A stretch of 25,748 nucleotides of DNA from an uncultured Lentisphaerales bacterium (GTDB lineage Bacteria > Verrucomicrobiota > Kiritimatiellia > RFP12 > JAAYLN01), in assembly GCA_964426115.1 (NCBI GenBank), contig CAYRPP010000001.1:1-25748 (forward strand), read 5' to 3'. Position 1 is the stretch's first letter. Every line of letters begins with the position of its first letter. The position numbers and the translations under genes are program-made. This document shows, in pieces, positions 3,732-24,534 of the stretch. The notes beneath the pieces were generated by a model. That model did no database searches. It was not told the origin of the DNA and saw only the letters and a program-made list of their open reading frames with translations.

Positions 3732-3771
3732 ACGTGCCATACGGCATCGTTCAACCAAGGAGAATGACGCG

Positions 3772-4491
3772 ATGAAGACCGGAACAGGCAGGATCATGTT
3801 CAAGACGATGGTGGCTGGCGTCGTCATCGGCGCGGCATGCGGCGGCGCGGCATTCGCCGCGGCGGCCGACGACAAGCCGGCCGCCAAGGTGCCGCCCGCG
3901 GCCGGGCTCCCGGGAGTGCTGCTGCTGGGCGACTCGATCTGTGGCGGGTATGGCCCGATGGTGCAGAAGGCGTTGCAGGGCGAGGCGGACGTCATGTACA
4001 TCAGCCATTGCGCCGACACCGCCAACGGCCTCAAGAACCTTGATGCCTGGCTGGGCGACCGCAAATGGCGCGTCATACACTTCAACTTCGGCCTCCACGA
4101 CATGAAGTATGTGGACGCGAAGGGCGAGCGCACCTCTCCGGACAAGGGCACACAGTTGATTCCGCCCGAGGACTACGAGAAGAACCTGACGGAGCTCTTG
4201 GCGCGGCTGAAGCGCACTGGCGCTGCGCTGGTCTGGGGCACCATCACACCGGTTCCGGCCGGCGCTAACGGCCGCGTTCAGGGTGACGAAGTCAAGTACA
4301 ATGCAATAGCCAAACGTATCATGGAGGCCAACGGCATCGCGGTCAATGACCTCTGCGGCGCCCTGGGAGCCGGCCCCGCGTTGGAGGATCTGCGGCGCGA
4401 GAGCAACAACGTCCACTTCAAGCCCAAGGGCTACAAGGTGCTGGCAGATGCCGTGTCCGGTAGCATCCGGACGGCCCTGAAGCAGCCTTGA
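3772..4491 (+). CDS. Secreted SGNH/GDSL-family hydrolase (probable carbohydrate O-acetylesterase)
   Basis: RBS AAGGAG at 3757-3762 supports ATG 3772 rather than the ORF-track start at 3304. Signal peptide. Blocks VLLLGDSI, IHFNFGLHD, LVWGTITPVP and NNVHF..KGY. Confidence 0.88.
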   Translation: MKTGTGRIMFKTMVAGVVIGAACGGAAFAAAADDKPAAKVPPAAGLPGVLLLGDSICGGYGPMVQKALQGEADVMYISHCADTANGLKNLDAWLGDRKWRVIHFNFGLHDMKYVDAKGERTSPDKGTQLIPPEDYEKNLTELLARLKRTGAALVWGTITPVPAGANGRVQGDEVKYNAIAKRIMEANGIAVNDLCGALGAGPALEDLRRESNNVHFKPKGYKVLADAVSGSIRTALKQP

Positions 4492-4502
4492 GGGAACACG
4501 GC

Positions 4503-5678: not shown

Positions 5679-5731
5679 GGCAAGACGGGCTGCGCGGCAG
5701 CCCGGCGACGGACAGACACAAGGGAGAACGA

Positions 5732-7114
5732 GTGAAAATCACGATCATCGGCGGCGGCTCGTACTGCTGGACGCCCACCCTGTTCCGCGACATCGTCTGC
5801 ACCGAGGGCATGGAGGGCAGCGAGATCGTACTGCATGACATCAACAGCCGCAACCTCGTGGATCTGCACGCTTGCTGCCAGGCGATCCTGGGACAACTGG
5901 GACAGACCGGACGCTTCAAGGTCGGCGCGACGACGAACCTCGCCGGCGCCCTGCGCCGCGCGGACTGTGTGATCCTGACGATCACCACCGGCGGCCTGGA
6001 CGCCATGGAGCACGACCTGGAGATCCCGTACACCTACGGCATCTGGCAGCCCGTCGGCGACACCGTGGGCCCCGGCGGCATCTCCCGCGCGCTGCGAAAC
6101 GTCCCGGTGGTGGTCGACATCGCGCGCGAGATGGAGCGGCAGTGCCCCCGCGCCTGGCTGCTGAATATCTCCAACCCCATGTCCGCGATCACCCGCGGTG
6201 TGTGGCGCGAGACGGGCATCCGCTGCATCGGCCTGTGCCACGAGCTCTACGGCACGCTGGCGCAGCTCCAGAAGATCCTGGGCGCCAAGGACTGGCGCAC
6301 GGACTTCGACTGCGTGAGCGTGGGCGTAAACCACCTGCCCTGGATCATCCGCCTCTCCTACCAGGGACGCGACGCGTTCCCCGCCGTGCGCCGCGCCCTG
6401 GCCAAGAACCGGGTACCCGCGTCGGGCAAGGAGCCGGGCACGGTGCTTGATCGGACGCTCATGGGGAGCAACGACGTCAAGTTCGCGCTCTTCGAGGCCT
6501 TCGGCGCCCTGCCGGCGGCGGGCGACCGGCATCTCGTCGAGTTCTTCCCCTACTTCTGCACCGCCCGCATGCGCAAGGGCGCCGCCATGGGCGTTGAGCT
6601 CACCCGCATCGGGCAGCGGCGCGACGTGTGGATGCCGGCCTGGAAGCAGAAGGTGGCGGACATCACCAGCGGCAAGGCGCCGGTCAAGTCCGTGGTCTCC
6701 AAGGAGGCAACCTCGCGCGTCGTGGCGGCGCTCGGCGGCCTCCGCGAATGGAGAGACGTCGTCAACATCCCTAACGCCGGACAGGTGCCCGGCATCCCGA
6801 AGGACGTCATCGTCGAGACCATGGGACTCATCGTCCGCGACCATGTGTACGGGCTGCCCGTCGGCGAGATGATACCGCCTGGCATCCTCACCCAGATCGC
6901 GCGCCACGCGACGAACCAGGAGATGACCGTCGAGGCCGCGCTGACCGGCGACCGCTCGCTCGTGCTGCAGGCCATGCTCAACGACCCGCTTTGCGGCGCG
7001 ATCGGCGATTTCCGCCGCATGGAACGGATGATGGACGAGCTGCTGCAGGCCAACCGCCAGTGGCTGCCGCGCTTTTTCGCGCGGCGTAGGCGCGCGGCCG
7101 GCGGCCGCCGTTAG
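5732..7114 (+). CDS. Glycoside hydrolase family 4 (NAD+/Mn2+-dependent; alpha-galactosidase/alpha-glucosidase-like)
   Basis: GTG 5732 after GGGAG. Rossmann KITIIGGGS, GH4 signature DLEIPYTYGIWQPVGDTVGPGG, NISNP, metal-binding GLCHE, GVNHLPW, LQAMLNDPL. Confidence 0.92.
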   Translation: MKITIIGGGSYCWTPTLFRDIVCTEGMEGSEIVLHDINSRNLVDLHACCQAILGQLGQTGRFKVGATTNLAGALRRADCVILTITTGGLDAMEHDLEIPYTYGIWQPVGDTVGPGGISRALRNVPVVVDIAREMERQCPRAWLLNISNPMSAITRGVWRETGIRCIGLCHELYGTLAQLQKILGAKDWRTDFDCVSVGVNHLPWIIRLSYQGRDAFPAVRRALAKNRVPASGKEPGTVLDRTLMGSNDVKFALFEAFGALPAAGDRHLVEFFPYFCTARMRKGAAMGVELTRIGQRRDVWMPAWKQKVADITSGKAPVKSVVSKEATSRVVAALGGLREWRDVVNIPNAGQVPGIPKDVIVETMGLIVRDHVYGLPVGEMIPPGILTQIARHATNQEMTVEAALTGDRSLVLQAMLNDPLCGAIGDFRRMERMMDELLQANRQWLPRFFARRRRAAGGRR

Positions 7115-7136: not shown

Positions 7137-9329
7137 ATGCTTATAAGGAACCGAGACAAGGAAGCTGGGAAGAAGGGCTCCGGGCGCGGCTGGGCGCGCG
7201 CGGCGGCCCTGCTGTGCGGCTTCGGCGGCATTCCTCTGATCGGCTTGTACGTCCACTGGTTCCCGACCGTCGCCATGGGGAACGGCGCCTTGCAGGTTGT
7301 GTTGATGAACGCCCTGGCGCCGGTAGTTTTCTTCCTCATGCTCGTGCTGGTCGGCATCGTCAACCCGCTGCTGCACCGCTTCCTGCGGCCGATGGCCATG
7401 GCACGCGGCGAGCTTCTGCTCGTCTTCACGCTCTGGTTCATGGGCAGCGCCGTCTGCTACCGCTGCCTGACGATGCCCGCCATGGCAGCCATCGGCAGTC
7501 TCCAGAGCCCCGCCACCGACACGCCGGCGCTGCGGCGCACCGGGCTTAAGAACTACCTGAAGTCCGCCTTCCACCTCCCGGCCGCCGCAGCCAAGGACTA
7601 CTTCTACGGCCTCGCGCCCGGCGGCGAAACGCGCGTCCGCCTGCTGCCGCGTTCCGCCGCGGCACCCGCGGCCACGCCTGCGGCAGCTCCCGCGGAAGCA
7701 TCCAACGCCGCGCCCGCCGCCGCAGCCCAGGCGGAGGCTCCCGTGCCCGCCATCCCCTGGCACGCCTGGGCCAAACCGCTGGCCTTCTGGGTGCCGTTCA
7801 TGCTCGTGGTCGCCGCCTTCTCCGCCTCGCTCGTGCGGATGCTCCAGCGGCAGTGGTCGCAGCACGAGCTGCTGACATATCCGCTGGCCGCGGTGGGCGA
7901 GTCGCTCATCGGTCGCGAGCCCGGCCGGGCATTTCCCGCCGTGTTCTACCAGGGACTCTTCTGGATCGGCTTCGCCCTGCCGGTCTTCATCGACGTGATC
8001 AACGGCCTGCGGGCCTACTTCCCGCTGATGATAGAGATCCCGATGGCCTTCAACCACCAGTCGCTGATCGGCAAGTTCCCCTTCCTGGCCAAGTACTGCG
8101 GCTTCCACGCCTACGGCCTCTTCCGCGGATTTGTCTACCTGTACATGATCGCGATCGCGGCGCTGCTGCCGACCGAGATCTCGCTCACCTGTTGGCTGGG
8201 ATGGATCCTGATGCTGCTCGGCACGGGAGCCTACTTCAAACTGACCGGCGAAGTCATCACGGAGACCGAGACCGCCAGCATGCAATATGGCATGTACGCG
8301 GCCATGGCTCTGACAATCCTTTACATTGGCCGCCGCGAGTACCTTAACGTGCTGCGCTGCGCCGTCGGGCTGCGGCGCGCGTCCGATCAGGGGCTGGCAC
8401 GGGCCGCGCGGAGCTGTCGCGTTTTCCTGCTCTCCGGCGTCATCCTGTGGTGGCTGCTGACGGTGCTGGGCCTGGACGGCTTCATCGCCGTCGTGCTGGT
8501 GGTCTCGCTCTCGGTGGTCGTGCTGCTGATCGCGCGCCTGACGGCCGAGACCGGCATCCCATGGCTGTACAACTTCATCGGCATGGCCAGCGGTCTGCCC
8601 CTGAAGCTGCTGGGTGCCGCGGCCATCGGGCCGCAGTCCCTGGCGGTCATCGCCACCGTGGGCGTGGTGCTCGACTCCAATACGACGAACACCCTCGCCG
8701 CCCAGGAGACCACCTACGGCAAGATGCGCGAGCAGACCGGCGCCTGGCCGCGCGGGCCAATCTTCAACCTGATCCTGGCGGCCGGCATCTGCCTGGCCAT
8801 CGTCAGCGGCATCGTCTTCACCTTGCGGGACAACTACACTTTCGGCGCGCAGCCCGACCAGTATGACTCGGTGATCGTCGGCCGCCTGCATGCCGCGGCC
8901 TCCGAGGTCTCGCGTCTGGAGGCCGAGGGGCGCATGGAGGAGGTGCAGGCCACGCACGGGCTCGCCAAGCTGAGACTCGTGAAGCCCGACCCCGGCCTGT
9001 TGCGCTTCCTGGGCATCGGAGCCGTGCTGGTCGCCGCGTGCGCGCTGCTGCGGCTGCGGTTCGCGGGCTGGCCGTTCCACCCGTTGCCGCTGCTCTTCAT
9101 CAACTCCTGGACGATGTCGCGGCTCTTCCTCTCAATCATGCTGGGCTGGCTGGTCAAGATGGCCATTCTGCGCATCTGGGGCGGCACGACCTTCGCGCGC
9201 GTCAAGCCGCTCTTCTTCGGCGTGGTCTTCGGCCAGGTGGCGATCCACGGCGTCTGGCTGATCGTCAACAGCATCTATTTCCTCGCGACGGGTATCACCC
9301 CGCCCAAAGTGCCTGGAGGTTTCTATTGA
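7137..9329 (+). CDS. Polytopic membrane protein, DUF6785/DUF6784-like (OPT-superfamily-like)
   Basis: Many hydrophobic helices. Motifs FYGL...IPWHAWAKPLAFW, QWSQHELLTYPL and C-terminal LRLRFAGWPFHP...GWLVKMAILRIWG. Start codon is uncertain because the RBS is weak. Confidence 0.75.
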   Translation: MLIRNRDKEAGKKGSGRGWARAAALLCGFGGIPLIGLYVHWFPTVAMGNGALQVVLMNALAPVVFFLMLVLVGIVNPLLHRFLRPMAMARGELLLVFTLWFMGSAVCYRCLTMPAMAAIGSLQSPATDTPALRRTGLKNYLKSAFHLPAAAAKDYFYGLAPGGETRVRLLPRSAAAPAATPAAAPAEASNAAPAAAAQAEAPVPAIPWHAWAKPLAFWVPFMLVVAAFSASLVRMLQRQWSQHELLTYPLAAVGESLIGREPGRAFPAVFYQGLFWIGFALPVFIDVINGLRAYFPLMIEIPMAFNHQSLIGKFPFLAKYCGFHAYGLFRGFVYLYMIAIAALLPTEISLTCWLGWILMLLGTGAYFKLTGEVITETETASMQYGMYAAMALTILYIGRREYLNVLRCAVGLRRASDQGLARAARSCRVFLLSGVILWWLLTVLGLDGFIAVVLVVSLSVVVLLIARLTAETGIPWLYNFIGMASGLPLKLLGAAAIGPQSLAVIATVGVVLDSNTTNTLAAQETTYGKMREQTGAWPRGPIFNLILAAGICLAIVSGIVFTLRDNYTFGAQPDQYDSVIVGRLHAAASEVSRLEAEGRMEEVQATHGLAKLRLVKPDPGLLRFLGIGAVLVAACALLRLRFAGWPFHPLPLLFINSWTMSRLFLSIMLGWLVKMAILRIWGGTTFARVKPLFFGVVFGQVAIHGVWLIVNSIYFLATGITPPKVPGGFY

Positions 9330-10834
9330 GCGGCGGCACGGACATAGTAGCGGCTCCCGAGCGTCTCGAAGTGCGGCCCCAGGCGCGCCTCTCGTTCCGC
9401 CGTCTGCTGGAAGTCTGCCTGGACAGCCTGGCGCACCGGCTGCTGCGCTCGTCGGTGGCCATGGTCATCGTCCTGCTGGCCGTCGCCTTCCTGGCGTTCG
9501 TGACCGGCGAGAACGCGCTGGGGCGGGGCGCCCATGCCGCCGCCCGCGAGCGCGCCGGGCAGGTGGCCGCCTACACCCGCTTCCTACGGAAGGCCAGCCA
9601 GGTCGAGTCCGCCGAGCAACTCGTGCGCCGCGCGGACCGCATGCGCCCGGGATCGGCGGACATGTCCAACCTGGTGCGGTGGGGCGTGATGGATGTCGCG
9701 GACGCCGCCGCGTTTGTCGCCATGTGCCGCGACACGGCAGGCTATCTGGACTTCTTCGACCGGCTGCCGCTTGGGCGCCGCGTGCTGCTGGTCGAGGACC
9801 GCAAGGGCCTTGAGCTGCTCGACTGGCTGTCCGTGGCGCCGAACCTCGCGGTCTTCCGCGCGCGCTTGGCCGGCATGCCGTCCGTCAGCTTGCCGGGCGG
9901 CGCGGCGGCGCTCGACCCGTTCCTCGGCCGCTGGACGGCGTTCCGCGGACGGCTGGCGCTCGTGAACCGCAACCACGCGGACGTCGTGCGGCGGATCGCG
10001 GAGTTCGCGGGCGCCGCGGGGATCGAGGGCCGACTCGCCGAGGCCCGGCAGAACCAGGCCGTCCCCGCCTTCTTCGGGGAACTGGCCGCCCGGGGCCTCG
10101 ATATCGAGAAATCCGACATCGCGAACATCACGGAGGGCCTCGCGCAGCACCGCGATGTCAACTGGGCCTTCGGGCTGCTCAAGCAGACGCCCGTGCGCGT
10201 GGGCTGGCAGCGTGAGTACCGCGAGCAGTTCAATCCCGCCGCCGCGCTCGAAAGTCTGGCGCGACACAGCGCGCGCGTCGCGTGGATCGCGGAACGTCTG
10301 CGGAAGGCCGAACCGGCTACGGAACTCGACACGGCGCGTCTGGCGTCCGTCGCCGGGGTGTACGCGCGCAACCAGGCTGTCCTGCGCCAGGAGGAGCGCC
10401 TGGACGCGCGCTACGGCGAGGGCGGACGTACGGCCGGGCGCACGGTGTGCCTGATCGTGGTCTCCTTCCTCGTCTGCGTGGCGGGCATCGCCAACGCCAT
10501 GCTGATGAGCGTGCTGGAGCGCTTCCGGGAAATCGCCACCATGAAGTGCCTCGGCGCGCGCAACGGCACGATCGCCTTTCTCTTCATAACCGAGTCGGTC
10601 ATCGTCGGCGTGGTGGGCGGCATCGCCGGCGTGGCGGTGGGCCTGGCCATGGCCTTCGCGCGCCTGCTCGCGCAGCATGGCGGGCTGGTGCTCGCCCGCC
10701 TGCCGGGCCACGAGCTCGCCGCCATCGCGGCCGGCTGCCTGGCCTGCGGCCTGTTCCTGGCCATGCTGGCCGCCATCCTTCCCGCGCGCGTCGCCTCGCG
10801 CATGGCCCCCATGGAAGCGATGAGGATCCAGTGA
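9326..10834 (+). CDS. FtsX/MacB-family (type VII ABC) permease, small subunit
   Basis: TTG start overlaps the upstream stop (TTGA) with RBS GGAGGT at 9315-9320. TM1 after LAHRLLRS, a large extracytoplasmic domain, then FtsX motif IANAMLMSVLERFREIATMKCLGA...FITES and C-terminal LPARVASRMAPMEAMR. Confidence 0.9.
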   Translation: MSGGTDIVAAPERLEVRPQARLSFRRLLEVCLDSLAHRLLRSSVAMVIVLLAVAFLAFVTGENALGRGAHAAARERAGQVAAYTRFLRKASQVESAEQLVRRADRMRPGSADMSNLVRWGVMDVADAAAFVAMCRDTAGYLDFFDRLPLGRRVLLVEDRKGLELLDWLSVAPNLAVFRARLAGMPSVSLPGGAAALDPFLGRWTAFRGRLALVNRNHADVVRRIAEFAGAAGIEGRLAEARQNQAVPAFFGELAARGLDIEKSDIANITEGLAQHRDVNWAFGLLKQTPVRVGWQREYREQFNPAAALESLARHSARVAWIAERLRKAEPATELDTARLASVAGVYARNQAVLRQEERLDARYGEGGRTAGRTVCLIVVSFLVCVAGIANAMLMSVLERFREIATMKCLGARNGTIAFLFITESVIVGVVGGIAGVAVGLAMAFARLLAQHGGLVLARLPGHELAAIAAGCLACGLFLAMLAAILPARVASRMAPMEAMRIQ

Positions 10835-11643
10835 TGGACGGAGAAGCCATCCGCGACCAGCCCGCTGCAGCGGACGCCGCACCGGCGGCGCCCCGCCCTG
10901 CCGTCCGGCGCCATGTCAGCCCCGTCATCCTCCGCACCCGCGACGTGACCAAGGTCTATCGCCCGGGGAGCGTCGCAGTGCATGCCCTGCGCGGCGTGAC
11001 CGTCGAGATCCGTCGCGGCGAGTTCGTGTCGATCATGGGACCCTCGGGGAGCGGCAAGACCACGTTCTTCAACATAGTCGGCGCCCTGGTCGCGCCGACC
11101 AGCGGGCGCGTGCTGATCGACGAGGTCGATGTCGCCCAGCTCAACAAGGACGAACTGGCCTTCATCCGCTGCCGCAAGATTGGATACGTGTTCCAGACGT
11201 ACAACCTGGTGCCCGCGGCGACGGCCCTGGAGAACGTCATGATGTCCATGCTGTTCGCGGGCGTCGTGCCCGACGACGCGCGGCGGCGCGGCATGCATCT
11301 GCTCGAGCGCGTCGGACTGGGTGACCGATGGTTCCACCTGCCCAAGGAGCTCTCGGGAGGACAGCAGCAGCGCGTGGCAATCGCGCGCTCGCTGGCGAAC
11401 GATCCGCGCATCCTGCTCTGCGACGAGCTGACCGCGAACCTTGATCTCAAGACCGGCCAGGCCATCATCGACCTGCTGGTGGATCTGAACAAGCAGTCGG
11501 GCGTCACGGTTGTGTGCTCCACACACGACTACCGCATGATCGACAAGTCGGACCGCATTCTCTGGATCCGCGACGGTCGGATCGAGAAGATCCAAGCGCG
11601 TCACGAGATCCGGGTGCGGCTCGGCTCGGTGGAGGAGGAATGA
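10834..11643 (+). CDS. LolD/MacB-family ABC ATP-binding protein 1
   Basis: TGATG overlap at 10832-10836. Walker A GPSGSGKT, Q-loop GYVFQ, signature LSGGQQQRV, Walker B ILLCDE, H-loop STHD. Confidence 0.93.
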   Translation: MDGEAIRDQPAAADAAPAAPRPAVRRHVSPVILRTRDVTKVYRPGSVAVHALRGVTVEIRRGEFVSIMGPSGSGKTTFFNIVGALVAPTSGRVLIDEVDVAQLNKDELAFIRCRKIGYVFQTYNLVPAATALENVMMSMLFAGVVPDDARRRGMHLLERVGLGDRWFHLPKELSGGQQQRVAIARSLANDPRILLCDELTANLDLKTGQAIIDLLVDLNKQSGVTVVCSTHDYRMIDKSDRILWIRDGRIEKIQARHEIRVRLGSVEEE

Positions 11644-14600
11644 GCGTGAGGCGCGCAGATGCGGTGGGCGGCGGAGCGGGCCGCGGCGGGAGTCGGCGGG
11701 GTAGGGCACCGCGCGCCGCCAACCTGCTGCTGGGCCTGCTACTGGGTGCGGCGGCGGCCCACGGCACCGCCGGCGGCGCGCCCGTGCTGGACCCCGAACG
11801 CTTCCGGGCGCACGTTGCGGCGCTCACCCGCGAGGACCATCGCCTGGCGGGAACCCCGGAAGGCGGCCGCGCGGCCGCCTACATCGAGTCGCAGTTGCGG
11901 CAGATGCCGGGCGAGGTGTTAACCCAGTCCATCCGCTTCCCGCAGGAGATCGTCGCGCGCTGCGAGCTGCGCGCCGGATCAGGCAGCCTGGCGCTGCAGC
12001 CGCTGGCCGCCAACGGCCTCCAGCCTTGCATCACGCCGCCGGAAGGCCTGCGGGCGCCGCTGGTATACATCGGCGCCGCGCGCCTGTCCGTGTCGGACAT
12101 CAGGGACGCCGGGGCTTTGCGGTCGCGGCTGGCGGCGGCGGAAGGCGCGGCGGCGCCGTCGCCGGCGCGCCGCCTTTGGGAGCGGCTCCCGCCCGAACTG
12201 CGCCAGCCCGCGGCTCCCGACGCCACGGCGGACGGCGGGGACGCGACTTTCCGGCGCCGTCTGGCCTCCGCCATGGACCGCCTCGTGCTGGGCGACGCAG
12301 GTTTTTTCGACGCCCAAGCCTTCGCCGGCGTCTCCCTGCGTCCTGAGACCCGCACGCTGGTGGAGCAGCGCGAGGGCGGCCTAACGGCCGTACAGACGCG
12401 GCGCCTCAACCGCCTGCTGCTGGAGGACGCCTTCCCGGACATGATCACGCGGGGCGCGGACGGCAAGCGCATGGATGGCTGCATCGCCGTCGACGACCTC
12501 GGCCGCCTGGACGCCTTTGGCGATGCCTTCCGCCTCGGCGCAAGCGCCATCATTTTCATCGGGCAGGCGCGCGACAATTTCGGCGCGCCGCCCTGGTCAG
12601 CCGGCCGCCTCCCCTTCAGCGCGGACCTGCCGCGCTTCCTCGTGACCGAGGAGCAGGCGCTGGCGTCCGACCTGCTGGGCGAGGAGCAGGCGGAGTTGCA
12701 TTCACGGGTGACGTGGGAGCCCTGCGCCGGGACGAACGTTTTTCTCTGGATTCCCGGCCGCGCTCCGTCCTTCGGGCCCAACGCCGGGGAGTACGTGATC
12801 CTTTCGGCGCCGTTCGACAGCGGCGGCATCGCGCCCCGCCGCTGCCCCGACCGCGAGCGGGCGGCCAATTGCGCGGCTCTGATCGAGACCGCGCGGATGC
12901 TCGCTGCGCAACCGCCCGCGCGCTCTGTGCTGGTCGCGTTCTTCGACAACCACGCCAACTTCCTGCAGGGCGGACGCGAGTTCTATGGCGCCTTGCGGCG
13001 CGCCATCGGCCAGCGCGCGGACTACTCTTTCGAGGACTGGGAGACTTCGATCCGGGACGAGCGCGACGCCCTGGTCGGCATTCACGCGCTCTACGGGCGC
13101 GACGATCTGATCGGCGGCCAGGCTGGCAGGACGACCGACGCGCTGCAGCGCCTGGCCGACGAGGCCCGCACGCGCTACAACGCCGTGATGACGGAACTGC
13201 AGGACGCCCGCGTCGCGCATCGCAAGCTGGCGGCCGCCGCGGCGTCGGCGGGCCGCGACGGGCGCGAGCGTGAGCTGCAGGCGCGCATCGAGCAGCTCGG
13301 CCGGGAACAGCGCGCCTGGCAGAAGGTGCGCGAGAGCATCCGCGACCGGAAACCTCCCGATGCGTCGCAGGACGCGCTCGCCTGCGACTACCTGCGGATG
13401 ACCATTGAACTCGTGCGCGCGCAGATCGGCGGCCGCCTCCTAGAGCTCGACGACGATGCCCTGCGCCTCGGCGAGCAGAAGCGCCTCACGGCGCCGCTGG
13501 CCGGCGCCACCCCCGTCTGCCACGCCGCCTTCCGCTTCACGGCCGGTTCGTCTCGCTGGCTGTTCCTGCCGCACGGCCTGACGCAGCACATGCGACTGTA
13601 TGCCGCATGGATGGACCGCGTGGGCGCGGAAGGCGCGGCGGCGGCGGGGTTCGCCTGGGACACGCGCACCTCCTGGGAGGCGGCCAACGCCACGCCGCTG
13701 AGCCACGTGGCCTGGCAGACCGTCGAGGAGTGCGCGCTGGCGGAGATATTCAACATCCCTGCCGTGGCACTGGTCACGGAAATGGACCGCACCGCCGCCC
13801 AGGGCTGGCCGGACGACGCCGCCACGGGCGATCCCGACGCCATCCGGGGCCAGGCGCAGGGTTTCCTGGCCTTTCTGATGCCGCTTCTCGACGAGGCGTG
13901 GGTGTCCGTGCCCAACCGCATCCTCGCCCAGCGCAAGTTCCTGATCGAGGAGCCCGCGTGGAACGGCAGGCGGCCCGAGGGGCACGCGGTCAAGATCTTC
14001 GGCTTCGGCGACACCGAGGCCAGCACGCCCGCGCCTAACGCCCTGGTGCGCGTGATGGACGGAAGCATGCGGGCGGGATATGTCGTGATGGCCAACGGTA
14101 ACGGGCACTTCCCGCTGGCGCCGGTGTTCAACACCATCGAAGCGCCGACGCCGGCCCCTGGGGCGAGCTGGCGCTATCTGCAGCTCGAGGCGGCGAGCTT
14201 CGGCGCGGACGGCCGCATCGAGCGCATCAACGCCTGCGTGCCGGGAGGGGGCACCGCCTCCGTGGACACGGGTTGGCACCGCGCGGGGCGCTGGCGCGCC
14301 AAGGCCGAGACGGGTTACAACACGATCCTGACGCTATTCCAGGGTACACCCGGCTTTTTTTTGGGCCGGGAAAATCCCTTCGCGGGCGGATTCAAGACGT
14401 ACAGTTTCCGATTGCTGGGGGGGCTCGGCAATACGGATATCGGCGAGTCCCAGAAGCTCTGCATGCGCTACGACAATGGCATCGGCGTCTGCTGGGTCGA
14501 GCGGCCGGCGGGCATCAAGATCGTCTACAAGGATCCCCGGAATCCGGACAGCGTCCTGCTCTATGTAAACGCCACGCCGGACAACCCCCTGGGAACCGGT

Positions 14601-17066
14601 TACGGACCCGGAGTCCACGAGGAGGACACGGCTCCCCTGCAACTGGATCTCCACCAGGCCATGGCCGCCGACATGCTGGAGGTGAACGAGTCGCGGCTGG
14701 ACCGTCTGCGCCGCAAGAGCATCGTCCTGAACTACATGGAGTACCTGCACAGCCGCGCGCGCCGGCTGCGGGAGGCCCTCGTGGCGGCGCAGGCCGGCCA
14801 TCTCCATTCCCTGGCGGACCTGCATGCCGCGGTGATCGCGGCCTTCGAGCGCAACGTCTACCGGCCGGTCATGGCCACGACCGACGACATGGTCAAGTCG
14901 GTGACCGTGCTTCTGCTGCTGGCCATGCTTTTTGCCGTCGCGGCCCAGAGCCTGCTGCTCCCCACGTACAACGTCTACCGGCGCATCGGGTGCGTGGCCG
15001 GGATCTTCGTGCTGGTCTTCGCCGCGCTGTACGTGTCGCATCCCGCCTTCGCCTTCTCGGCGACGCCCGCCGTCATCATCCTGGCCTTCATCATCATGGT
15101 GATGAGCGGCGCCGTCATATGGGTGGTCAGCGACCGCTTCCGGTACGAGATCAAGAAGCTCAGGGGATTGGCGTCGGAGACGCATGCCATAGAAAACCGC
15201 GTGCTCGGCAACTTCGGCGCGGCTTTCTCGCTGGCGATCTCCGCCATGCGGCGGCGGTCGGCGCGCACCGGGCTGACCGTGGTCACCGTGCTTCTGCTCA
15301 CCTTCACGATCCTCACCTTTGTGGCCTCCCAGGCCGAGTTCGGCGTCCAGACCTTCCGCAAGGGGCCGGCGGCCGACTCCGTGTCGTCCCTGATGCTCCG
15401 CGGCGCGGGCTGGCGGGACTTCCCCGGCGGCCCCGAGCCATGGCGCGACTTCCTGGAGACTTACCACGGCGGAACCTACGCACTGCACGGGCGCTACTGG
15501 CTGACGCGTCCGATCACGACGGACATCAACGCCGACGAGGACCTGTATGTGCCGGTCCGGACGGCGGCGGGCGACAAGCATGCCGTGGCCGGCTCCATCA
15601 TGACCTTGGACCGGCAGGAGCTGGAGCGCGTTCCGGGCATCGCGGCGGTGCTGCCGCCGGAGCACCGGGAGGACTTCGCGAGAGGGGAGGGGGTCTACCT
15701 CTCCCAGGCGCTGGCCGACCAGCTAGGCGTGGCGCCGGGCGCACCGATCGTGCTCTCCGGGCTGCCGCTGCGGTTCCTTGGCGTGTTCGACGCCGCCGCC
15801 CTCCTGAAGCAGCAGCAGATCGACGGCTCGCCCCTCGCCCCCGTGAGTTTCGTGGGCACGCGCATGGCCTTCGGCGAGGCCAAGGCCAAAGGCAGCGCCG
15901 TCGGCGGATCGGATGCCCTCGCGGACATGGAGGAGGCTCTGGAGCGGCTCGAGCCTGAGGCGCTGGTGCCGGTCACTCCCGATGCGCTGGTGATCGCACC
16001 CACGGCGCTCGCCGGACCGCTGCGCCTCGCGCTGAAGGCCCTCGTCATGTATCCGGACGGCAACGGGGACGATCTCGAGCCGCTGGCGCGCGACCTGGCC
16101 ATCCTGCATCACGACGGCGTGTTCGTCAACCAGGGCGGCGAGCGCACGCATTACCGCTACGGCGACCGGCGCGGCGCGCTCGGCTCCGCCGACGTCGTCA
16201 TTCCGCTGCTGCTGGGCGGCCTGATCGTCTTCTCCACCATGCTGGGTTCCGTGGTCGACCGCGAGAAGGAGATCTACACCTTCTCCGCCCTGGGGCTTGC
16301 GCCGCGCAGCATCGCTATGCTCTTCTTCGTCGAGGCCGCCGTCTACGCCGTGCTGGGCGGACTGGGCGGCTACTTCCTGGGCCAGGTCGTCATGCGGATG
16401 CTGGAGGGGGTGGCCCGTTTCGTTCCCTTCCAGGTGCCGGAGATGAACTATTCCTCGTCCACCGTGGTGCAGACTATCCTGCTGGTCATCGCGACGGTGC
16501 TGGTGTCGACCATCTATCCGGCCGTCAAGGCCGCCCGCAAGGCCACGGCGGAGACGCTGCGGCAGTGGCGGGCGCCCGCGCCGCAGGGCAACCGGCTGGT
16601 GTTCGACTTTCCCTTCACCATCTCGCGCTACGACGTGACCGGCATCGCCTGCTTCATCCAGGAGCACTTCCGCAACCATGCCGACCGCACGGTCGGCGCC
16701 TTCGCGGCCGACCAGGCGGGCATCCGGCTGGATGCACAACACCGCCTCGCCGCGCTTTCGGCGCGAATCTGGCTGCAGCCGTTCGACCAGGGCATCAGCC
16801 AGACCTTCAACCTGACCGCTCGCCCGTCGGCCGACATCGAGGAGGTCTGCGAGATCACGCTGCACATCGAGCGCCTCTCCGGCCCCGACGCGGCCTGGCG
16901 GCGCGCCTGCCGGGTCTTCCTGACGGACCTGCGCGCGCAGTTCCTTCTGTGGCGCACGCTGGGCGACGAGGCGCGCGAGCACTACCTGGCCCAGGCCGAC
17001 GCCGTCGAGGCCCGGCTGGCGGAGCCACCCCCGGGACCGCACACCGACAGGAACGCCGAGACATGA
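11640..17066 (+). CDS. Giant (1808 aa) membrane protein: signal peptide, PA-containing M28-fold pseudo-peptidase ectodomain, coiled coils, beta domain, extra TM bundle, FtsX/MacB permease module and cytoplasmic C-terminal domain
   Basis: ATGA overlap at 11640 with RBS GGAGGAGG. M28-like RLAGTPEGGRAAAYIESQL, YVILSAPFDS and RSVLVAFF. FtsX motifs AMRRRSARTGLT and STMLGSVVDREKEIYTFSALGLAPRSIAMLFFVEA. Confidence 0.85.
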   Translation: MSVRRADAVGGGAGRGGSRRGRAPRAANLLLGLLLGAAAAHGTAGGAPVLDPERFRAHVAALTREDHRLAGTPEGGRAAAYIESQLRQMPGEVLTQSIRFPQEIVARCELRAGSGSLALQPLAANGLQPCITPPEGLRAPLVYIGAARLSVSDIRDAGALRSRLAAAEGAAAPSPARRLWERLPPELRQPAAPDATADGGDATFRRRLASAMDRLVLGDAGFFDAQAFAGVSLRPETRTLVEQREGGLTAVQTRRLNRLLLEDAFPDMITRGADGKRMDGCIAVDDLGRLDAFGDAFRLGASAIIFIGQARDNFGAPPWSAGRLPFSADLPRFLVTEEQALASDLLGEEQAELHSRVTWEPCAGTNVFLWIPGRAPSFGPNAGEYVILSAPFDSGGIAPRRCPDRERAANCAALIETARMLAAQPPARSVLVAFFDNHANFLQGGREFYGALRRAIGQRADYSFEDWETSIRDERDALVGIHALYGRDDLIGGQAGRTTDALQRLADEARTRYNAVMTELQDARVAHRKLAAAAASAGRDGRERELQARIEQLGREQRAWQKVRESIRDRKPPDASQDALACDYLRMTIELVRAQIGGRLLELDDDALRLGEQKRLTAPLAGATPVCHAAFRFTAGSSRWLFLPHGLTQHMRLYAAWMDRVGAEGAAAAGFAWDTRTSWEAANATPLSHVAWQTVEECALAEIFNIPAVALVTEMDRTAAQGWPDDAATGDPDAIRGQAQGFLAFLMPLLDEAWVSVPNRILAQRKFLIEEPAWNGRRPEGHAVKIFGFGDTEASTPAPNALVRVMDGSMRAGYVVMANGNGHFPLAPVFNTIEAPTPAPGASWRYLQLEAASFGADGRIERINACVPGGGTASVDTGWHRAGRWRAKAETGYNTILTLFQGTPGFFLGRENPFAGGFKTYSFRLLGGLGNTDIGESQKLCMRYDNGIGVCWVERPAGIKIVYKDPRNPDSVLLYVNATPDNPLGTGYGPGVHEEDTAPLQLDLHQAMAADMLEVNESRLDRLRRKSIVLNYMEYLHSRARRLREALVAAQAGHLHSLADLHAAVIAAFERNVYRPVMATTDDMVKSVTVLLLLAMLFAVAAQSLLLPTYNVYRRIGCVAGIFVLVFAALYVSHPAFAFSATPAVIILAFIIMVMSGAVIWVVSDRFRYEIKKLRGLASETHAIENRVLGNFGAAFSLAISAMRRRSARTGLTVVTVLLLTFTILTFVASQAEFGVQTFRKGPAADSVSSLMLRGAGWRDFPGGPEPWRDFLETYHGGTYALHGRYWLTRPITTDINADEDLYVPVRTAAGDKHAVAGSIMTLDRQELERVPGIAAVLPPEHREDFARGEGVYLSQALADQLGVAPGAPIVLSGLPLRFLGVFDAAALLKQQQIDGSPLAPVSFVGTRMAFGEAKAKGSAVGGSDALADMEEALERLEPEALVPVTPDALVIAPTALAGPLRLALKALVMYPDGNGDDLEPLARDLAILHHDGVFVNQGGERTHYRYGDRRGALGSADVVIPLLLGGLIVFSTMLGSVVDREKEIYTFSALGLAPRSIAMLFFVEAAVYAVLGGLGGYFLGQVVMRMLEGVARFVPFQVPEMNYSSSTVVQTILLVIATVLVSTIYPAVKAARKATAETLRQWRAPAPQGNRLVFDFPFTISRYDVTGIACFIQEHFRNHADRTVGAFAADQAGIRLDAQHRLAALSARIWLQPFDQGISQTFNLTARPSADIEEVCEITLHIERLSGPDAAWRRACRVFLTDLRAQFLLWRTLGDEAREHYLAQADAVEARLAEPPPGPHTDRNAET

Positions 17067-19036
17067 GAAGCCGGAGCGCCACACAGGATCGGGAGCTCGA
17101 GTTCTACCGCGGCCTGATGGAGCCGCCGGGCACCTTCGACGAGGGGTTCCGGTGGTCGGCCCTCATGGGCGCCATCCTGGTCGCGCTCGTGATGGTGCCC
17201 GGATCGATCTACATGAGCCTCATGCAGGGGCAGGGGGTCGGCGGCGCCGCCCAGTGGGTCATGGTGCTGCTATTTGTCGAGATCGCCAAGCGCATGCACC
17301 AGAGCATGAACAAGGCCCAGATCTTCGTGCTCTTCTACATGGCTGGCGCCGCCATGCAGATGCCCTTCTTCGGGCTGCTGTGGAACCAGTACCTGGTGCG
17401 CAGCGAGGCGGTCATCGGCCATGGCTTCGTGGAGCTGATTCCTTCCTGGGTGGCGCCCTCCGATCCCGCCGTGCTGGCCCGGCGCAGCTTCTTCCAGGCG
17501 GCCTGGCTGCCGGTGATCGGCATGGTGCTGTTCTCGCAGATCCTGTCGCGTCTCGACAACGCGATCCTGGGGTACGGCCTGTTCAAGGTCACGTCGGACC
17601 TTGAGCGGCTGCCGTTCCCCATGGCGCCGGTGGGCGCCCAGGGCATCGCGGCGCTGGCCGAGGATCTCGACCAGGCCAACCGGTCGTCGAGCAACCGGCG
17701 CTGGCGCGTCTTCTCGTTCGGCGGCGCGATCGGGCTCGTCTTCGGCCTGCTTTACCTCGGCCTGCCTACGCTATCGGATGCCCTGCTGGGCAAGTCCATA
17801 CGCCTGCTGCCGATCCCCTTCTCGGACTGGACCGGAAAGACGGCCGGGTTCCTGCCGGCCGTGGCCACGGGTTTCTCCTGCCAGCTGGGCTCCTTCATCA
17901 TGGGGATGGTGCTGCCGTTCTGGGCGGTCATGGGCAGCGTGGCCGGCGTCGTCATCACCTTCATCCTGAACCCGATCCTGTACCACACGGGACACCTCGT
18001 CTCCTGGACACCGGGCGACAGCACCGTCGAGACGCTCTTCAAGAACCGCGTCGACTTCTACTTCAGCTTCGGCCTGGGCATCTCGCTGGCGATCGCGCTT
18101 ATCGGCATCGTCAGCGTCATCCGCGGCCTGCGCGAATGGCGACGGCATGCCGGCGCGGCGGAGGCCGTCGTTCCCCCGCCGAACCGCGGTGACCTCTCGT
18201 TCCGGACCGTGGGTTGCGTGTATGCGGCGAGCACCCTGCTGTACATCCTGGTGTCCGGATGGCTGATCGGATGGCACCGCGGCGTCATGGCCGTCTTATG
18301 CGTCTACGGCTTCGTCTACACGCCGCTGGTGAGCTACGCCACGGCGCGGCTGGAGGGCATGATCGGCCAGACCGTCGAAATTCCCTTCGTCCGCGAGGCC
18401 GGCATTCTGCTGTCGGGCTACAAGGGGCTGGCGTGCTGGTTCCTGCCCATGCCGCTGCACAACTACGGCACGGCTACCATGTTCTACCGCAAAGCCGAGC
18501 TGACGGGCACGCGCTTTCCCTCGATCTGGAAGACCGAGAGCCTGCTGATCCCCTTCGTGCTCGTCAGCGCGATCTTCTACGTCCAGCTCATCTGGTCCAT
18601 GGGCGACATTCCCTCGGCGGCCTACCCCTTCGCGGAGCGCATGTGGGCGCTGCAGGCCAAGAACCAGGTGCTGCTCTATTCTTCCACCGCCGGGGGCTAC
18701 TCCCAGTTCTTCGAAGCCTTCAAGCCCGCCGTCATCGGCGCCGGCCTGGCCGCCTCGCTGGGGCTCTTCGCTGTACTGCAGGCCCTGGCCGCCCCCACTT
18801 TCCTGCTGTTCGGCGCGGTCCGCGGCCTTGACCAGACCATGCCCCACGCGATCCTTCTGGAGATGCTCGGCGCGCTCTTCGCGCGCTTCTACCTCGAGAA
18901 GGTCATGGGCGCCGGCGCGTGGCGCAAGACGGCGCCCGTCCTGGCCGCGGGCTTCGGGTGCGGCATGGGGCTCGTCGGCATGTTCTGCATCGGCGTGAAG
19001 TTCATGGCGACGGCGGTCATCAAGACGCCGTTCTGA
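17063..19036 (+). CDS. OPT/YSL-superfamily-like polytopic membrane transporter
   Basis: ATGA overlap at 17063. About 16 hydrophobic segments. OPT/YSL-type motif LERLPFPMAPVG; C-terminal PVLAAGFGCGMGL. Confidence 0.75.
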   Translation: MRSRSATQDRELEFYRGLMEPPGTFDEGFRWSALMGAILVALVMVPGSIYMSLMQGQGVGGAAQWVMVLLFVEIAKRMHQSMNKAQIFVLFYMAGAAMQMPFFGLLWNQYLVRSEAVIGHGFVELIPSWVAPSDPAVLARRSFFQAAWLPVIGMVLFSQILSRLDNAILGYGLFKVTSDLERLPFPMAPVGAQGIAALAEDLDQANRSSSNRRWRVFSFGGAIGLVFGLLYLGLPTLSDALLGKSIRLLPIPFSDWTGKTAGFLPAVATGFSCQLGSFIMGMVLPFWAVMGSVAGVVITFILNPILYHTGHLVSWTPGDSTVETLFKNRVDFYFSFGLGISLAIALIGIVSVIRGLREWRRHAGAAEAVVPPPNRGDLSFRTVGCVYAASTLLYILVSGWLIGWHRGVMAVLCVYGFVYTPLVSYATARLEGMIGQTVEIPFVREAGILLSGYKGLACWFLPMPLHNYGTATMFYRKAELTGTRFPSIWKTESLLIPFVLVSAIFYVQLIWSMGDIPSAAYPFAERMWALQAKNQVLLYSSTAGGYSQFFEAFKPAVIGAGLAASLGLFAVLQALAAPTFLLFGAVRGLDQTMPHAILLEMLGALFARFYLEKVMGAGAWRKTAPVLAAGFGCGMGLVGMFCIGVKFMATAVIKTPF

Positions 19037-19053
19037 GCAAGGAACCTTGACCG

Positions 19054-19782
<729 letters not shown>

Positions 19783-19820
19783 CCGCGCGGACACACGCGG
19801 CACGGATCAGGTTACACGGG

Positions 19821-20723
19821 ATGCATCCAGTGAAGCGCAGTTCGACAGCAGACACCGCCGGCGCCGTGCCGGACGCCCCCGCCGCCTCCGCCGCGGCGCG
19901 CCTCGGCTGGCACCACCTGCTCCTCGACGTGCCCGTGGATTCCGAGGTGCTCGCCTACCAGGCGGATCCCCGCAAGGGACGCCTGATCCTCGGCGACCGC
20001 CACGGCGAGACGCTGCAGATCTTCTGGCGGGTGACCCGCCGCACGCCGGATCCGCTGCTCGGGCTCGAGCGCGTCGTCCGCGCCTTGACGGGCGACGGGG
20101 CGCGCGAGACCATTTTCACGATCAACGGCTGGCACGCCTGCCTGCCGGAACGGGACGATCTGCCGGGGCTTGCCTGCCGCTACGAGGCCCGCGGCGGGGC
20201 GCTGCTGTACGCCGTCTTCCCGCGCCGCGCCCGCCCGCGCCCGGAGCTCGCGATGCTCGAATCGTACAGTCCGAACGACGGCGAGGAGCGCGTCTGGGCG
20301 GCGTTCGGACTCGATGTGACCTTGCCGGCCGCCTTCGCCCCGGCGGTCGTCCGCCCATATCCGCTGGTCCAGAGAATCCGCTTCGAGAATCCGCGCGGCG
20401 AATCGGTCACCCTCTGCCGCCGCTCGCTTATGAGCTATCTGCCCGACGGGGACGACCTGGCCGTCCTCTACGCGCGCAACACGGAGCACAAGCGCCCGGT
20501 GAGCCGCACGGGAACCTTCCTGCACGACACCATCCACCCTGGCGTCACGCTGGCATACACCACCCGCGGCAAGGGCGGGCTGGAGGGCCTGATCGCGCCG
20601 ACGTGGCAGGGCCGCGTCTGGGCGTGGCGCTGTCCCGGAACGGACCGCGCGTACTGGATCGACCATAACGCGCCGGAAAAGCATCTGCTCCCGGATCTGC
20701 CGGAACGCGTACGCTGCCTATGA
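19821..20723 (+). CDS. Hypothetical cytoplasmic protein with two internally repeated domains (possibly PsbP/DcrB-like)
   Basis: GC3-rich ORF filling the gap between ATPase 2 and the PqqD gene, with its stop overlapping the next ATG. No TM segment or signal peptide. Start is ATG 19821 or GTG 19830. Confidence 0.65.
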   Translation: MHPVKRSSTADTAGAVPDAPAASAAARLGWHHLLLDVPVDSEVLAYQADPRKGRLILGDRHGETLQIFWRVTRRTPDPLLGLERVVRALTGDGARETIFTINGWHACLPERDDLPGLACRYEARGGALLYAVFPRRARPRPELAMLESYSPNDGEERVWAAFGLDVTLPAAFAPAVVRPYPLVQRIRFENPRGESVTLCRRSLMSYLPDGDDLAVLYARNTEHKRPVSRTGTFLHDTIHPGVTLAYTTRGKGGLEGLIAPTWQGRVWAWRCPGTDRAYWIDHNAPEKHLLPDLPERVRCL

Positions 20724-21247
20724 AGACCGACCGGCAACAGATCGTGACCGCGGCCATCCAGACCGCCATGGGCGACCGCGCGGAAGACGGGGAACCTTCC
20801 CGGCGCATGGAGGATCTGATCGACTGGCAGATGCGCTCCCTCGTGCTGCGCGCGCCGTCGGCCGTCTTCTCCCTCCGCCCGGACGGAGCGACGGTCGTCG
20901 TCCCGATCGCCTACCGTGGATGGAGAAGCCTGGCGCGCTGTCTGTTCCGACTGCGGCGCGAGCACCGCTACGCCCTCGACCGGCTCTCCGCCGAAGCGGT
21001 TGAGCTCTTCGACGGCCGCCGCACGGTTGGCGCGGTTGTCGGCGAGTTTGGTACGCGGCATCACCTGACGTTTTTCGAGGCCCGCGGCGCCCTGCTCGGG
21101 TTCCTGCATCCGCTGCTGCGGAAAGGAATTCTCCTGCTGGTCGCGCCGCGCGAGGGGTCACGGGGCGGCGGTGCCGCCCCGAACCAGGCCGGTGGAGAGC
21201 CGTTGACGGAGAGCGCACCGCGGTGCGCGGAAAAGGAAACCAGATGA
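20720..21247 (+). CDS. Stand-alone PqqD-family / RiPP recognition element (RRE)-like protein
   Basis: ATGA overlaps at both ends. PqqD-type segment YALDRLSAEAVELFDGRRTVGAVV....LTFFEARGALLGFLHPLLRKGIL. Confidence 0.75.
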   Translation: MKTDRQQIVTAAIQTAMGDRAEDGEPSRRMEDLIDWQMRSLVLRAPSAVFSLRPDGATVVVPIAYRGWRSLARCLFRLRREHRYALDRLSAEAVELFDGRRTVGAVVGEFGTRHHLTFFEARGALLGFLHPLLRKGILLLVAPREGSRGGGAAPNQAGGEPLTESAPRCAEKETR

Positions 21248-22248
21248 GCACGTATCGAGTCGGGATTATGGGGCTGGGCATCGGCAAACGATGGGCGGAG
21301 GTCGTCGCCAGTCACAAGGCCTCCACCCTGGTAACGATTTACGACCCGCTGCGGGAACGCGCCGCGGCCGCGGCGGAGGAGTTCCACGCGCGCGCGGCCC
21401 GCTCAGAGGACGACTTCTTCGGAACGGAGCTGGGCGTCGTGATCATTGCGACGCCTGATCATCTGCACCTGCCGCACACCCTGCGCGCGCTGGCCGCCGG
21501 ATGTCATGTGGTCTGCGAGAAACCCATGGCACCCACCGTGCGGGAGTGCCGGAAGATTGTCGCGGCCGTGAAGCGCCATCGCCGCCGTTTCATGGTCGGA
21601 CAGGTGTGCCGCTTCACGCCTGCCTTTCAACTGGCCAAGGAGATCCTGGAGAGCGGCGAAATCGGCGAACTGGCCTTTATCGAGAGCGAATACTATCACG
21701 ACTATACCCATGTCGCCGGGGTGGGCAACTGGCGCAAGTCCGCGCGCATCCGGCGGGAGGGGTTTGTCGGCGGCGGCTGCCACGCGCTCGATCTCATCCG
21801 GTGGCTGGCGGGAGAGCCGTCGGAAGTCTGCTGCTACATGAACCACAAGCTCTTGCCCGACTGGCCGACCAACGACACGGGTGTGGCCATCTTCCGTCTG
21901 CCGGGCGGCGTGATCGGCAAGGTCTTCGTCTCCATCGGCGCCAAGGCGGGCTACTCCATGCGCACGGTGCTGCACGGGACGAAAGGCTCGGTGGTGTGCG
22001 ACAACACTTCCGAATCCATCCGGCTCTTCAGTCGGCGTTTGCGGAACGTGGCCGGCGGTATGACTCTGCCGGTCCGCATCCAGAACCACAACATCGCGAG
22101 CGAATGGGAGGCTTTCGTCGCCAGCCTGGAGTCCGGCAAACCGCCGTTGACCGACGAGCACGAGGGCCTGCGCACGGTGGCGTTCGCCGAGGCCGCGCTG
22201 AAGAGCGCCCGCCTGAACCGGCCCGTTAAATTGTCTGCCGGCGCTTGA
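21244..22248 (+). CDS. Gfo/Idh/MocA-family NAD(P)-dependent oxidoreductase
   Basis: ATGA overlap at 21244 with RBS AAGGA. RVGIMGLG, IATPDHLH, CEKPMA, GGGCHALD. Confidence 0.92.
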   Translation: MSTYRVGIMGLGIGKRWAEVVASHKASTLVTIYDPLRERAAAAAEEFHARAARSEDDFFGTELGVVIIATPDHLHLPHTLRALAAGCHVVCEKPMAPTVRECRKIVAAVKRHRRRFMVGQVCRFTPAFQLAKEILESGEIGELAFIESEYYHDYTHVAGVGNWRKSARIRREGFVGGGCHALDLIRWLAGEPSEVCCYMNHKLLPDWPTNDTGVAIFRLPGGVIGKVFVSIGAKAGYSMRTVLHGTKGSVVCDNTSESIRLFSRRLRNVAGGMTLPVRIQNHNIASEWEAFVASLESGKPPLTDEHEGLRTVAFAEAALKSARLNRPVKLSAGA

Positions 22249-22285
22249 ACCGCCGCGGATCCGGAATGTCGAGACGAAGGAGACG

Positions 22286-24516: not shown

Positions 24517-24534
24517 TATGCTCTTCCGAGAGAA

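Follow-up and report, generated by a model that had tools for sequence, protein, structure and literature searches.

What kind of machine is built by eight adjoining genes that combine the parts of a type VII ATP-binding cassette (ABC) system with two carrier-like membrane proteins, a peptidase-like head and a PqqD-like protein? The question is raised by positions 7137 to 21247 of a contig from an uncultured Lentisphaerales bacterium (CAYRPP010000001.1). The window that was analysed is this complete 25.7-kb contig (25,748 nucleotides, nt), which has ~68% G+C and comes from a metagenome-assembled genome that is 55% complete; bioreactor and wastewater metagenomes contain its DNA. The answer reached here, which we hold with high confidence, is that the eight genes, hereafter the module, encode a single undescribed and conserved inner-membrane machine with this composition. 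That they form one unit is indicated by the 4-nt overlaps between neighbouring genes, by a gene set shared across phyla, by the counts of co-occurrence, by natural fusions within the module and by a triad of genes that is retained in paralogous copies. The open reading frame (ORF) list and the translations place all eight genes on the + strand, with the following spans and, for the giant permease, internal domains (lengths in amino acids, aa):

7137-9329, + strand: P1, polytopic membrane protein of 730 aa with the Pfam domains DUF6785 and DUF6784 and, by its model, an OPT/Yellow-Stripe fold
9326-10834, + strand: P2, FtsX-type permease A of 502 aa, with a first transmembrane segment, a periplasmic domain of ~310 aa and transmembrane segments 2-4
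10831-11643, + strand: P3, MacB/LolD-type ABC ATPase 1 with an N-terminal extension of ~30 aa (PF00005, E 8.5e-31)
11640-17066, + strand: P4, giant permease of 1808 aa, described from its translation, a transmembrane scan, Pfam and an alignment of 15 homologues
12507-13049, + strand: P4 residues ~290-470, PA domain and M28-like core without the zinc ligands and the catalytic Glu
15270-16541, + strand: P4 residues ~1211-1634, FtsX permease domain B, with a first transmembrane segment, a periplasmic domain of ~285 aa and transmembrane segments 2-4
16545-17063, + strand: P4 residues ~1636-1808, strongly conserved domain at the cytoplasmic C-terminus
17063-19036, + strand: P5, OPT-family-like polytopic membrane protein of 657 aa, assigned through its homologues
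19054-19782, + strand: P6, MacB/LolD-type ABC ATPase 2 (PF00005, E 7e-36)
19821-20723, + strand: P7, cytoplasmic protein of 300 aa with two PsbP/Mog1-like domains in tandem, according to its model
20720-21247, + strand: P8, PqqD/RRE-like small protein, assigned by family evidence

Start and stop codons overlap by 4 nt at the P1/P2, P2/P3, P3/P4, P4/P5 and P7/P8 junctions, and the remaining two junctions of the module are gaps of 17 nt and 38 nt. The layout described in the initial annotation, eight contiguous same-strand genes with five overlaps and two short gaps, is reproduced both by the coordinates and by a scripted check, and its inventory of parts (two OPT-like proteins, two FtsX permeases, two LolD-type ATPases, a repeat protein and a PqqD protein) proved correct when Pfam, profile and fold evidence were brought together. 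GGAGG/AGGA-type sites precede most of the start codons. A division of the module by an intrinsic terminator or a promoter was considered and rejected, as the scan of the window gave no credible signal of either type on the + strand.

The same gene set was found in loci of Verrucomicrobiae, Puniceicoccaceae and Lentisphaerae, where it appears in three different orders. A pattern scan in which each species was represented by one genome returned 579 relatives, which belong to the Verrucomicrobiota (Verrucomicrobiia, Kiritimatiellia, Lentisphaeria and Opitutae) and the Planctomycetota (Phycisphaerae and Planctomycetaceae), together with a few in assemblies labelled Fibrobacterota, Omnitrophota or Deltaproteobacteria. 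The record of one relative, Verrucomicrobia bacterium LW23 (locus L012), carries no metagenome-assembly label. Profile searches of 31 loci with full flanks recovered permease A, the giant permease and the OPT-like protein P5 in all 31, the PqqD protein in 26 and P7 in 25. DUF6785 was present in 18 of the 31, and in most of the others its expected position lay beyond the fetched DNA. The gene of the OPT-like protein P5 lies directly 3′ of the giant gene in every locus seen. An arrangement that recurs in this way is far beyond chance. Failure of the genes to co-occur in other genomes had been named at the outset as grounds for refuting the proposal; since the unit recurs, the proposal is not refuted on this count. 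No published description or characterised match of the module was found in the literature on DUF6785/DUF6784, on OPT with FtsX or on PqqD with FtsX and M28, and the earlier statement that no characterised system combines these parts still holds.

Within the phylum of the window the distribution is patchy: the module is present in 27 of 201 genomes and in 23 of 104 genera, with one to four copies each. In genomes with several copies (G163, G158, G035 and G004; loci L094-L107), distinct paralogous subtypes coexist, one being that of the window and a second one having a short permease A (~260-360 aa) and PqqD without P7. Genome G004 also contains triads of DUF6785, giant permease and OPT-like protein, around which the 18-28 kb read revealed neither an ATPase nor permease A. 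The triad is retained in the paralogous copies, and the invariant core therefore consists of DUF6785, the giant permease and the OPT-like protein. In the genome of the source organism itself (locus L002, contig C23, positions 4-456), a second DUF6785 fragment was detected with an E-value of 2e-12, and this suggests a second, paralogous copy of the module.

According to their sequences, P2, P4, P3 and P6 would form a heteromeric type VII ABC core with two unlike permeases and two unlike ATPases, and the parts of the heteromeric complex put forward in the initial annotation are confirmed. The FtsX domain PF02687 is matched by P2 (E 3.7e-15), in which the transmembrane scan found four segments, and by residues 1521-1634 of P4 (E 5e-11); the 15 giant homologues match FtsX without exception. 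When the family profile of P2 was compared with the PDB, Spr0695 (2.7e-21) and MacB (1e-18) came first, followed by LolF, YtrF and LolE/C, and FtsX was matched weakly; these alignments are confined to the region of transmembrane segments 2-4. The periplasmic domains of the FtsX units of P2 and P4 have no match in Pfam, MacB_PCD included. Reading of the translations showed that Walker A, Q-loop, LSGGQ, Walker B D-E and H-loop are all intact in P3, and that P6 likewise has all its ATPase motifs intact.

The curated models that score best on P3 and P6 are LolD, MacB, DevA and darobactin-export. The LolD, MacB, DevA and FtsE models give P3 190-215 bits, each under its cut-off, and all the curated family models of MacB, LolCDE and FtsEX score the module far under their cut-offs. 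The values are 18-222 bits against 966 for the MacB equivalog NF007826, 29.5-29.9 against 362 for LolC/E (TIGR02212), 215-221 against 307.75 for LolD (TIGR02211), 192-216 against 264.85 for FtsE (TIGR02673) and 25-33 against 225-255 for the FtsX models. With the known type VII ABC systems (MacAB-TolC, Spr0693-0695, LolCDE/LolDF, YtrEF and FtsEX-EnvC) the module shares the FtsX unit of four transmembrane segments, with a periplasmic domain between the first and the second, as well as MacB/LolD-type ATPases with all motifs. Its best solved matches among these systems are Spr0695, MacB and LolF, and two unlike permease subunits also occur in LolC/LolE. In contrast to these systems, the module has two unlike ATPases and periplasmic domains outside known families; its P4 is fused to a pseudo-peptidase head of ~1040 aa, contains three additional helices and ends in a conserved cytoplasmic tail; and it additionally encodes two OPT-fold permeases and a PsbP-fold/PqqD pair. 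It also comes without a membrane-fusion protein, TolC, LolA or EnvC partner, and neither a membrane-fusion protein (HlyD/MFP) gene nor a TolC gene was found in the window or in the related loci examined. Type VII systems are thought to act only by mechanotransmission at the outer membrane face, where they serve efflux, lipoprotein extraction or enzyme activation.

The giant permease P4 begins with a signal anchor, which is followed by an ectodomain of ~1040 aa, three extra transmembrane helices, the FtsX domain with its four transmembrane segments and a cytoplasmic tail of ~170 aa. PF04389 (M28) was matched by 12 of the 15 homologues (best 2.7e-9), with single matches to Nicastrin, Gaa1 and PA; the M28 score of the P4 of the window itself, 19.6, is under the cut-off of 21.3. 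Comparison of the head profile with the PDB returned the aminopeptidase 2ek8 (3.5e-8), nicastrin (6e-4) and also nicalin. In the profile alignment to 2ek8, the family as a whole has other residues in place of the His of HxD, the bridging Asp (DDASG) and the EE pair, so that the two-zinc site (His, Asp, Glu, Asp, His) and the catalytic Glu of the active M28 peptidases are not found in the P4 family. The head is therefore predicted to be a conserved pseudo-peptidase that has lost its metal and catalytic residues. It would stand in this respect beside nicastrin, nicalin, Gaa1 and the transferrin receptor, which share the PA and M28 scaffold with the metal ligands and the catalytic Glu replaced. 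For nicastrin and nicalin the likeness extends to the profile matches and to the predicted position of the P4 head as a large extracytoplasmic part on a membrane complex. Unlike these non-catalytic M28-fold proteins, the P4 head is bacterial, is fused to an FtsX permease and is interrupted by long coiled-coil-like inserts. At the other end of the protein, the cytoplasmic tail has many invariant residues across the 15 homologues, and neither Pfam nor the Atlas gave a match for its family or fold. A separate observation concerns residues ~470-640 of P4 (12900-13560 of the window), where the M28-like core is followed by a long coiled-coil-like stretch rich in Arg, Glu, Ala and Gln; this stretch brings to mind the coiled coil with which EnvC docks on FtsX.

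The two remaining membrane proteins, P1 and P5, would be two very divergent members of one fold, P1 on the basis of its model and P5 through the PF03169 matches of its homologues. P1 has matches to DUF6785 (E 4e-58) and DUF6784 (E 3e-20), and its link to OPT comes from fold only. Its AlphaFold model (pLDDT 81, pTM 0.84) superposes over its full length on the barley transporter YS1 (HvYS1, 7wst_A; Foldseek E 3e-8, template modelling (TM) scores 0.57/0.67), and the best 30 Foldseek matches among the Swiss-Prot models are all YSL/OPT proteins of plants and fungi. P5 has at least 3709 homologues; many of them match PF03169 (OPT), some of these matches being marked weak or faint, and some are named OPT/YSL family or peptide transporter in their source records. 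Pfam gave no PF03169 match for P1 or P5 themselves and no match of any kind for P5, and the P5 family had no match by sequence among solved structures. That P1 and P5 might be detectable sequence paralogues was also considered and rejected, as BLASTP and hhalign of the family profiles gave nothing. In comparison with the OPT/YSL family (PF03169, TC 2.A.67; HvYS1, 7wst), P1 thus shares the full-length fold at an identity of about 11-15% and is filed by Pfam as DUF6785/DUF6784, and P5 misses PF03169, which many of its homologues match; the two have no mutually detectable sequence similarity. One Atlas cluster of DUF6785 proteins is 85% archaeal. OPT/YSL proteins are thought of as stand-alone proton-coupled importers, the characterised ones known to us being importers of peptides or metal chelates, and the bacterial members are essentially unstudied. 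No OPT protein is known to operate together with an ABC motor.

P7, which the initial annotation had listed as a repeat protein, appears from its model to be a tandem PsbP/Mog1-fold protein. The model has a pLDDT of 86.7 and a pTM of 0.80, and the transmembrane scan found no segment. Its matches in the PDB are PsbP (E 2e-5), Mog1, TplEi, Tsi3 and SciW, with E-values of 2e-5 to 1e-3, TM scores by query of merely 0.3-0.35 and identities of 10-15%. By sequence P7 matched no solved structure and could not be assigned to a family; its own family comprises 1605 representative clusters. The fold is that of the PsbP/Mog1/DUF1795-type proteins, which include PsbP, Mog1, the type VI secretion system immunity proteins TplEi and Tsi3 and the Eag-type chaperone SciW, and in TplEi two such domains stand in tandem, as in P7. 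What sets P7 apart from them is its low TM scores and identity, its predicted cytoplasmic location and its position within an ABC module. In homologues encoded ahead of PqqD and permease A, the C-terminus is mostly a conserved L-x-C-C; the P7 of the window ends in R-C-L.

The assignment of P8 was obtained at the level of the family. Its own PqqD match is weak (E 0.013, 16.3 bits, cut-off 23.4), PF05402 is matched by 17 of 18 family members at E<=0.01 (best 4.7e-12), and the family profile matches PqqD and lasso-peptide B1 chaperones in the PDB with E-values of 0.004-0.05. P7 and P8 are naturally fused in several lineages, and these fusions lie within the same modules. A C-terminal PqqD domain is present in five of six long members of the P7 family, and the top AlphaFold-DB cluster match for P7 is a 426-aa 'PqqD family protein'. 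With the RRE/PqqD proteins of natural-product pathways (PqqD; lasso-peptide B1 proteins such as TbiB1, 5v1u), P8 has in common the PF05402 matches of its family and the profile matches, whereas it is constantly paired, and in some cases fused, with a tandem PsbP-fold protein, and no pathway genes are conserved. Neither a precursor peptide nor a modifying enzyme (radical SAM, protease or cyclase) was found conserved in the related loci, and the gaps within the module do not exceed 38 nt.

Two metatranscriptomic libraries from wastewater contain contigs that are nearly identical to the window, with 0-4 differences per 450-1800 nt. These contigs cover parts of P1-P5, the junctions at 9326, 11640 and 17063 among them, and parts of the neighbouring GH4 and Gfo/CE15 genes. 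This is consistent with transcription of the module in situ, with the limits that RNA libraries may carry DNA and that a contig spanning two genes is not proof of one transcript. A spike of depth at 19108-19771 is seen in each of the four runs, the DNA run among them; it lies on the conserved ATPase gene P6 and was read as cross-matching from other organisms.

What, then, would such a machine do? Our preference, tentative and held at somewhat less than an even chance, goes to ATP-assisted uptake of a peptide-like cargo over export or regulation. It is favoured because the OPT fold, the M28 scaffold and PqqD all have a peptide-handling ancestry and because the characterised OPT/YSL proteins that we know of are importers; PqqD/RRE relatives bind peptides. 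By analogy with MacB, LolCDE and FtsEX, P2 and P4 would heterodimerise and work with P3 and P6, and the hydrolysis of ATP by these ATPases would be transmitted through the FtsX helices to the periplasmic domains, with no path being opened across the membrane. The dead-peptidase head might capture a peptide-like ligand (a peptide or a glycopeptide) and load it onto the OPT-fold permeases P1 and P5, which would move it inward. On the cytoplasmic side, the P7/P8 pair could bind the incoming peptide or the disordered tail of a subunit. The complete scheme, a hybrid transporter in which a type VII mechanotransducer with a dead-peptidase head loads the OPT pair and the PsbP-fold/RRE pair acts as cytoplasmic acceptor, is a more doubtful proposition, which we rate as rather unlikely as it stands. 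If true, it would be without precedent, both as an importer on the MacB/FtsX architecture and as an OPT system coupled to ATP. The association of OPT proteins, a type VII ABC system, a nicastrin-like dead peptidase and an RRE protein outside a natural-product pathway would extend four families, and it could show how a class of substrates is taken up or dealt with by polymer degraders that abound in the environment (Verrucomicrobiota, Planctomycetota, Lentisphaeria and Kiritimatiellia). The question is experimentally approachable, as the module exists in hundreds of genomes and in the LW23 record and sequences of it turn up in metatranscriptome libraries from wastewater.

Several points weigh against uptake of a peptide-like cargo. 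Type VII ABC systems of known function export, extract or activate, and import is not known for any of them. The module and the neighbouring genes of the loci examined include no conserved outer-membrane partner or binding protein. It is not obvious what use the import of a peptide would make of an RRE-type protein. In one genome, two copies of the module have no ATPase gene within the stretches read, the flanking genes are not conserved, so that the context gives no general substrate, and the RNA-library contigs can contain DNA.

The first of these points leads to the opposite direction of transport. The FtsX core or the OPT-fold proteins might move a peptide, a lipoprotein or a lipid-linked molecule outward or out of the membrane, with P7 and P8 delivering a cytoplasmic peptide encoded elsewhere, in the way that RRE proteins of natural-product pathways pass peptides on to their partners. 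We consider this unlikely. In its favour, the type VII relatives with a known function all work outward or at the outer face, the efflux pumps Spr0695 and MacB and the LolF/LolE proteins are the solved structures nearest to permease A, the ATPases score best on the LolD, MacB, DevA and darobactin-export models, and PqqD relatives handle cytoplasmic precursor peptides. However, in the loci examined neither the module nor its surroundings contain a conserved precursor gene, modifying enzyme, membrane-fusion protein or outer-membrane channel, and the characterised OPT/YSL proteins known to us are importers. An essential role like that of Lol is further opposed by the patchy spread of the module (27 of 201 genomes), LolCDE being near-universal in diderms.

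The preference for uptake leaves the cargo to be considered, and here the genes on both sides of the module come into play:

5730-7114, + strand: GH4 NAD-dependent glycosidase without signal peptide, flanking the module
21223-23485, + strand: Gfo/Idh/MocA oxidoreductase and CE15 glucuronoyl esterase without signal peptides, flanking the module

The module is separated from GH4 by a gap of 22 nt and overlaps the Gfo/CE15 side by 25 nt. The initial annotation had placed it inside a carbohydrate-catabolic operon and had suggested import of oligosaccharides or glycopeptides. As a general function of the family, import of oligosaccharides in partnership with neighbouring cytoplasmic glycosidases now seems quite improbable. 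It draws on the absence of signal peptides in the GH4 and Gfo/CE15 flanks of the window and on the glycosidase genes that adjoin the module elsewhere, in L006 (GH116, GH109), L088 (GH95, GH106), L091 (GH78) and L093 (GH20, GDSL, Gfo), and roughly seven of the 29 same-strand genes that directly follow the module are glycan-related. The other downstream neighbours include FAA hydrolase, sulfate permease, QueH and rRNA methyltransferases, and most neighbours are unrelated to glycans. The 101 flanking ORFs of 48 loci contain 121 Pfam families, none of which occurs more than three times, and a scan of the 20 ORFs that lie closest to eight copies of the module, in four multi-copy genomes, gave no glycan enzyme. 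Moreover, given the wealth of carbohydrate enzymes in these phyla, a certain amount of adjacency is to be expected by chance, and no part of the module belongs to a carbohydrate-binding family, whereas three have a peptide-binding ancestry.

The carbohydrate setting is thus a feature of some lineages, that of the window included, and not of the module: the carbohydrate-catabolic operon stands for this lineage's window and falls, on the counts of flanking ORFs and neighbours, as a property of the module. With flanks that are not conserved, import of oligosaccharides or glycopeptides is not indicated as the general role of the family. A conserved carbohydrate neighbourhood as a general feature was rejected on the same counts, and so was a multiplication in the manner of polysaccharide utilisation loci, with different glycan enzymes for each copy, as the paralogues differ in module type and not in glycan neighbours. 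A modest enrichment of carbohydrate enzymes beside the module is possible. For the window's own module, import of an oligosaccharide or glycopeptide is likewise possible, and the cargo may be a glycoside or a glycopeptide because the module shares a co-directional array with cytoplasmic GH4, CE15 and Gfo enzymes. The earlier statement that the flanking enzymes lack signal peptides holds for GH4, CE15 and Gfo and fails for the DUF4838/GH2_N protein at 987-3503, which has a signal-peptide-like N-terminus.

Control in place of transport is improbable too, and we rank it below the import of oligosaccharides. The ABC core would switch the head, gating the OPT-fold proteins as channels or activating an envelope enzyme, like FtsEX-EnvC. 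The FtsX domains and the non-catalytic, partly coiled-coil ectodomain (P4 ~470-640) do resemble the logic of FtsEX-EnvC, and pseudo-peptidases such as nicastrin, which the profile of the P4 head matches, are gatekeepers. Against this, no hydrolase or EnvC gene is conserved nearby among the 101 flanking ORFs and the 29 downstream neighbours, the FtsE and FtsX models score far under their cut-offs, and the invariable partners are transporter-fold proteins. That the genes belong to independent systems lying side by side, namely an efflux pump of the ABC type, importers of the OPT type and a stray RRE gene, is scarcely credible: each part comes from a family able to work alone, but their co-occurrence in hundreds of loci across phyla despite a reshuffled order, the 4-nt overlaps and the giant-to-OPT adjacency in every locus seen mean that this explanation is largely refuted by synteny.

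Beyond the module, the + strand array runs from the start of the contig to 23485 and ends with the CE15 gene. It is met by a convergent gene on the minus strand at 23395-24576, a Gfo/Idh/MocA oxidoreductase (Pfam E 1.8e-22); the 406-aa ORF at 23353-24573 on the + strand is spurious, the real gene being this one. A radical SAM gene at 24780 lies beyond the convergent gene and thus outside the array of the module. The lack of a signal peptide in the CE15 glucuronoyl esterase is unusual for its family. In another locus, a DUF4838 protein, such as that encoded in the upstream part of the window, is encoded directly downstream of the module. Within 3304-5678, a GDSL/SGNH esterase ORF has a long N-terminal extension rich in Arg, Ser and Pro, which is probably untranslated, the true start likely being near residue 90-100. 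The 396-aa protein that follows it has faint matches to alpha/alpha-toroid glycosidase or lyase families. Between this ORF and the start of GH4, one base at position 5714 of the window is absent from one DNA contig of run X1, which is probably the source sample, a difference that probably reflects strain or assembly variation in an intergenic stretch.

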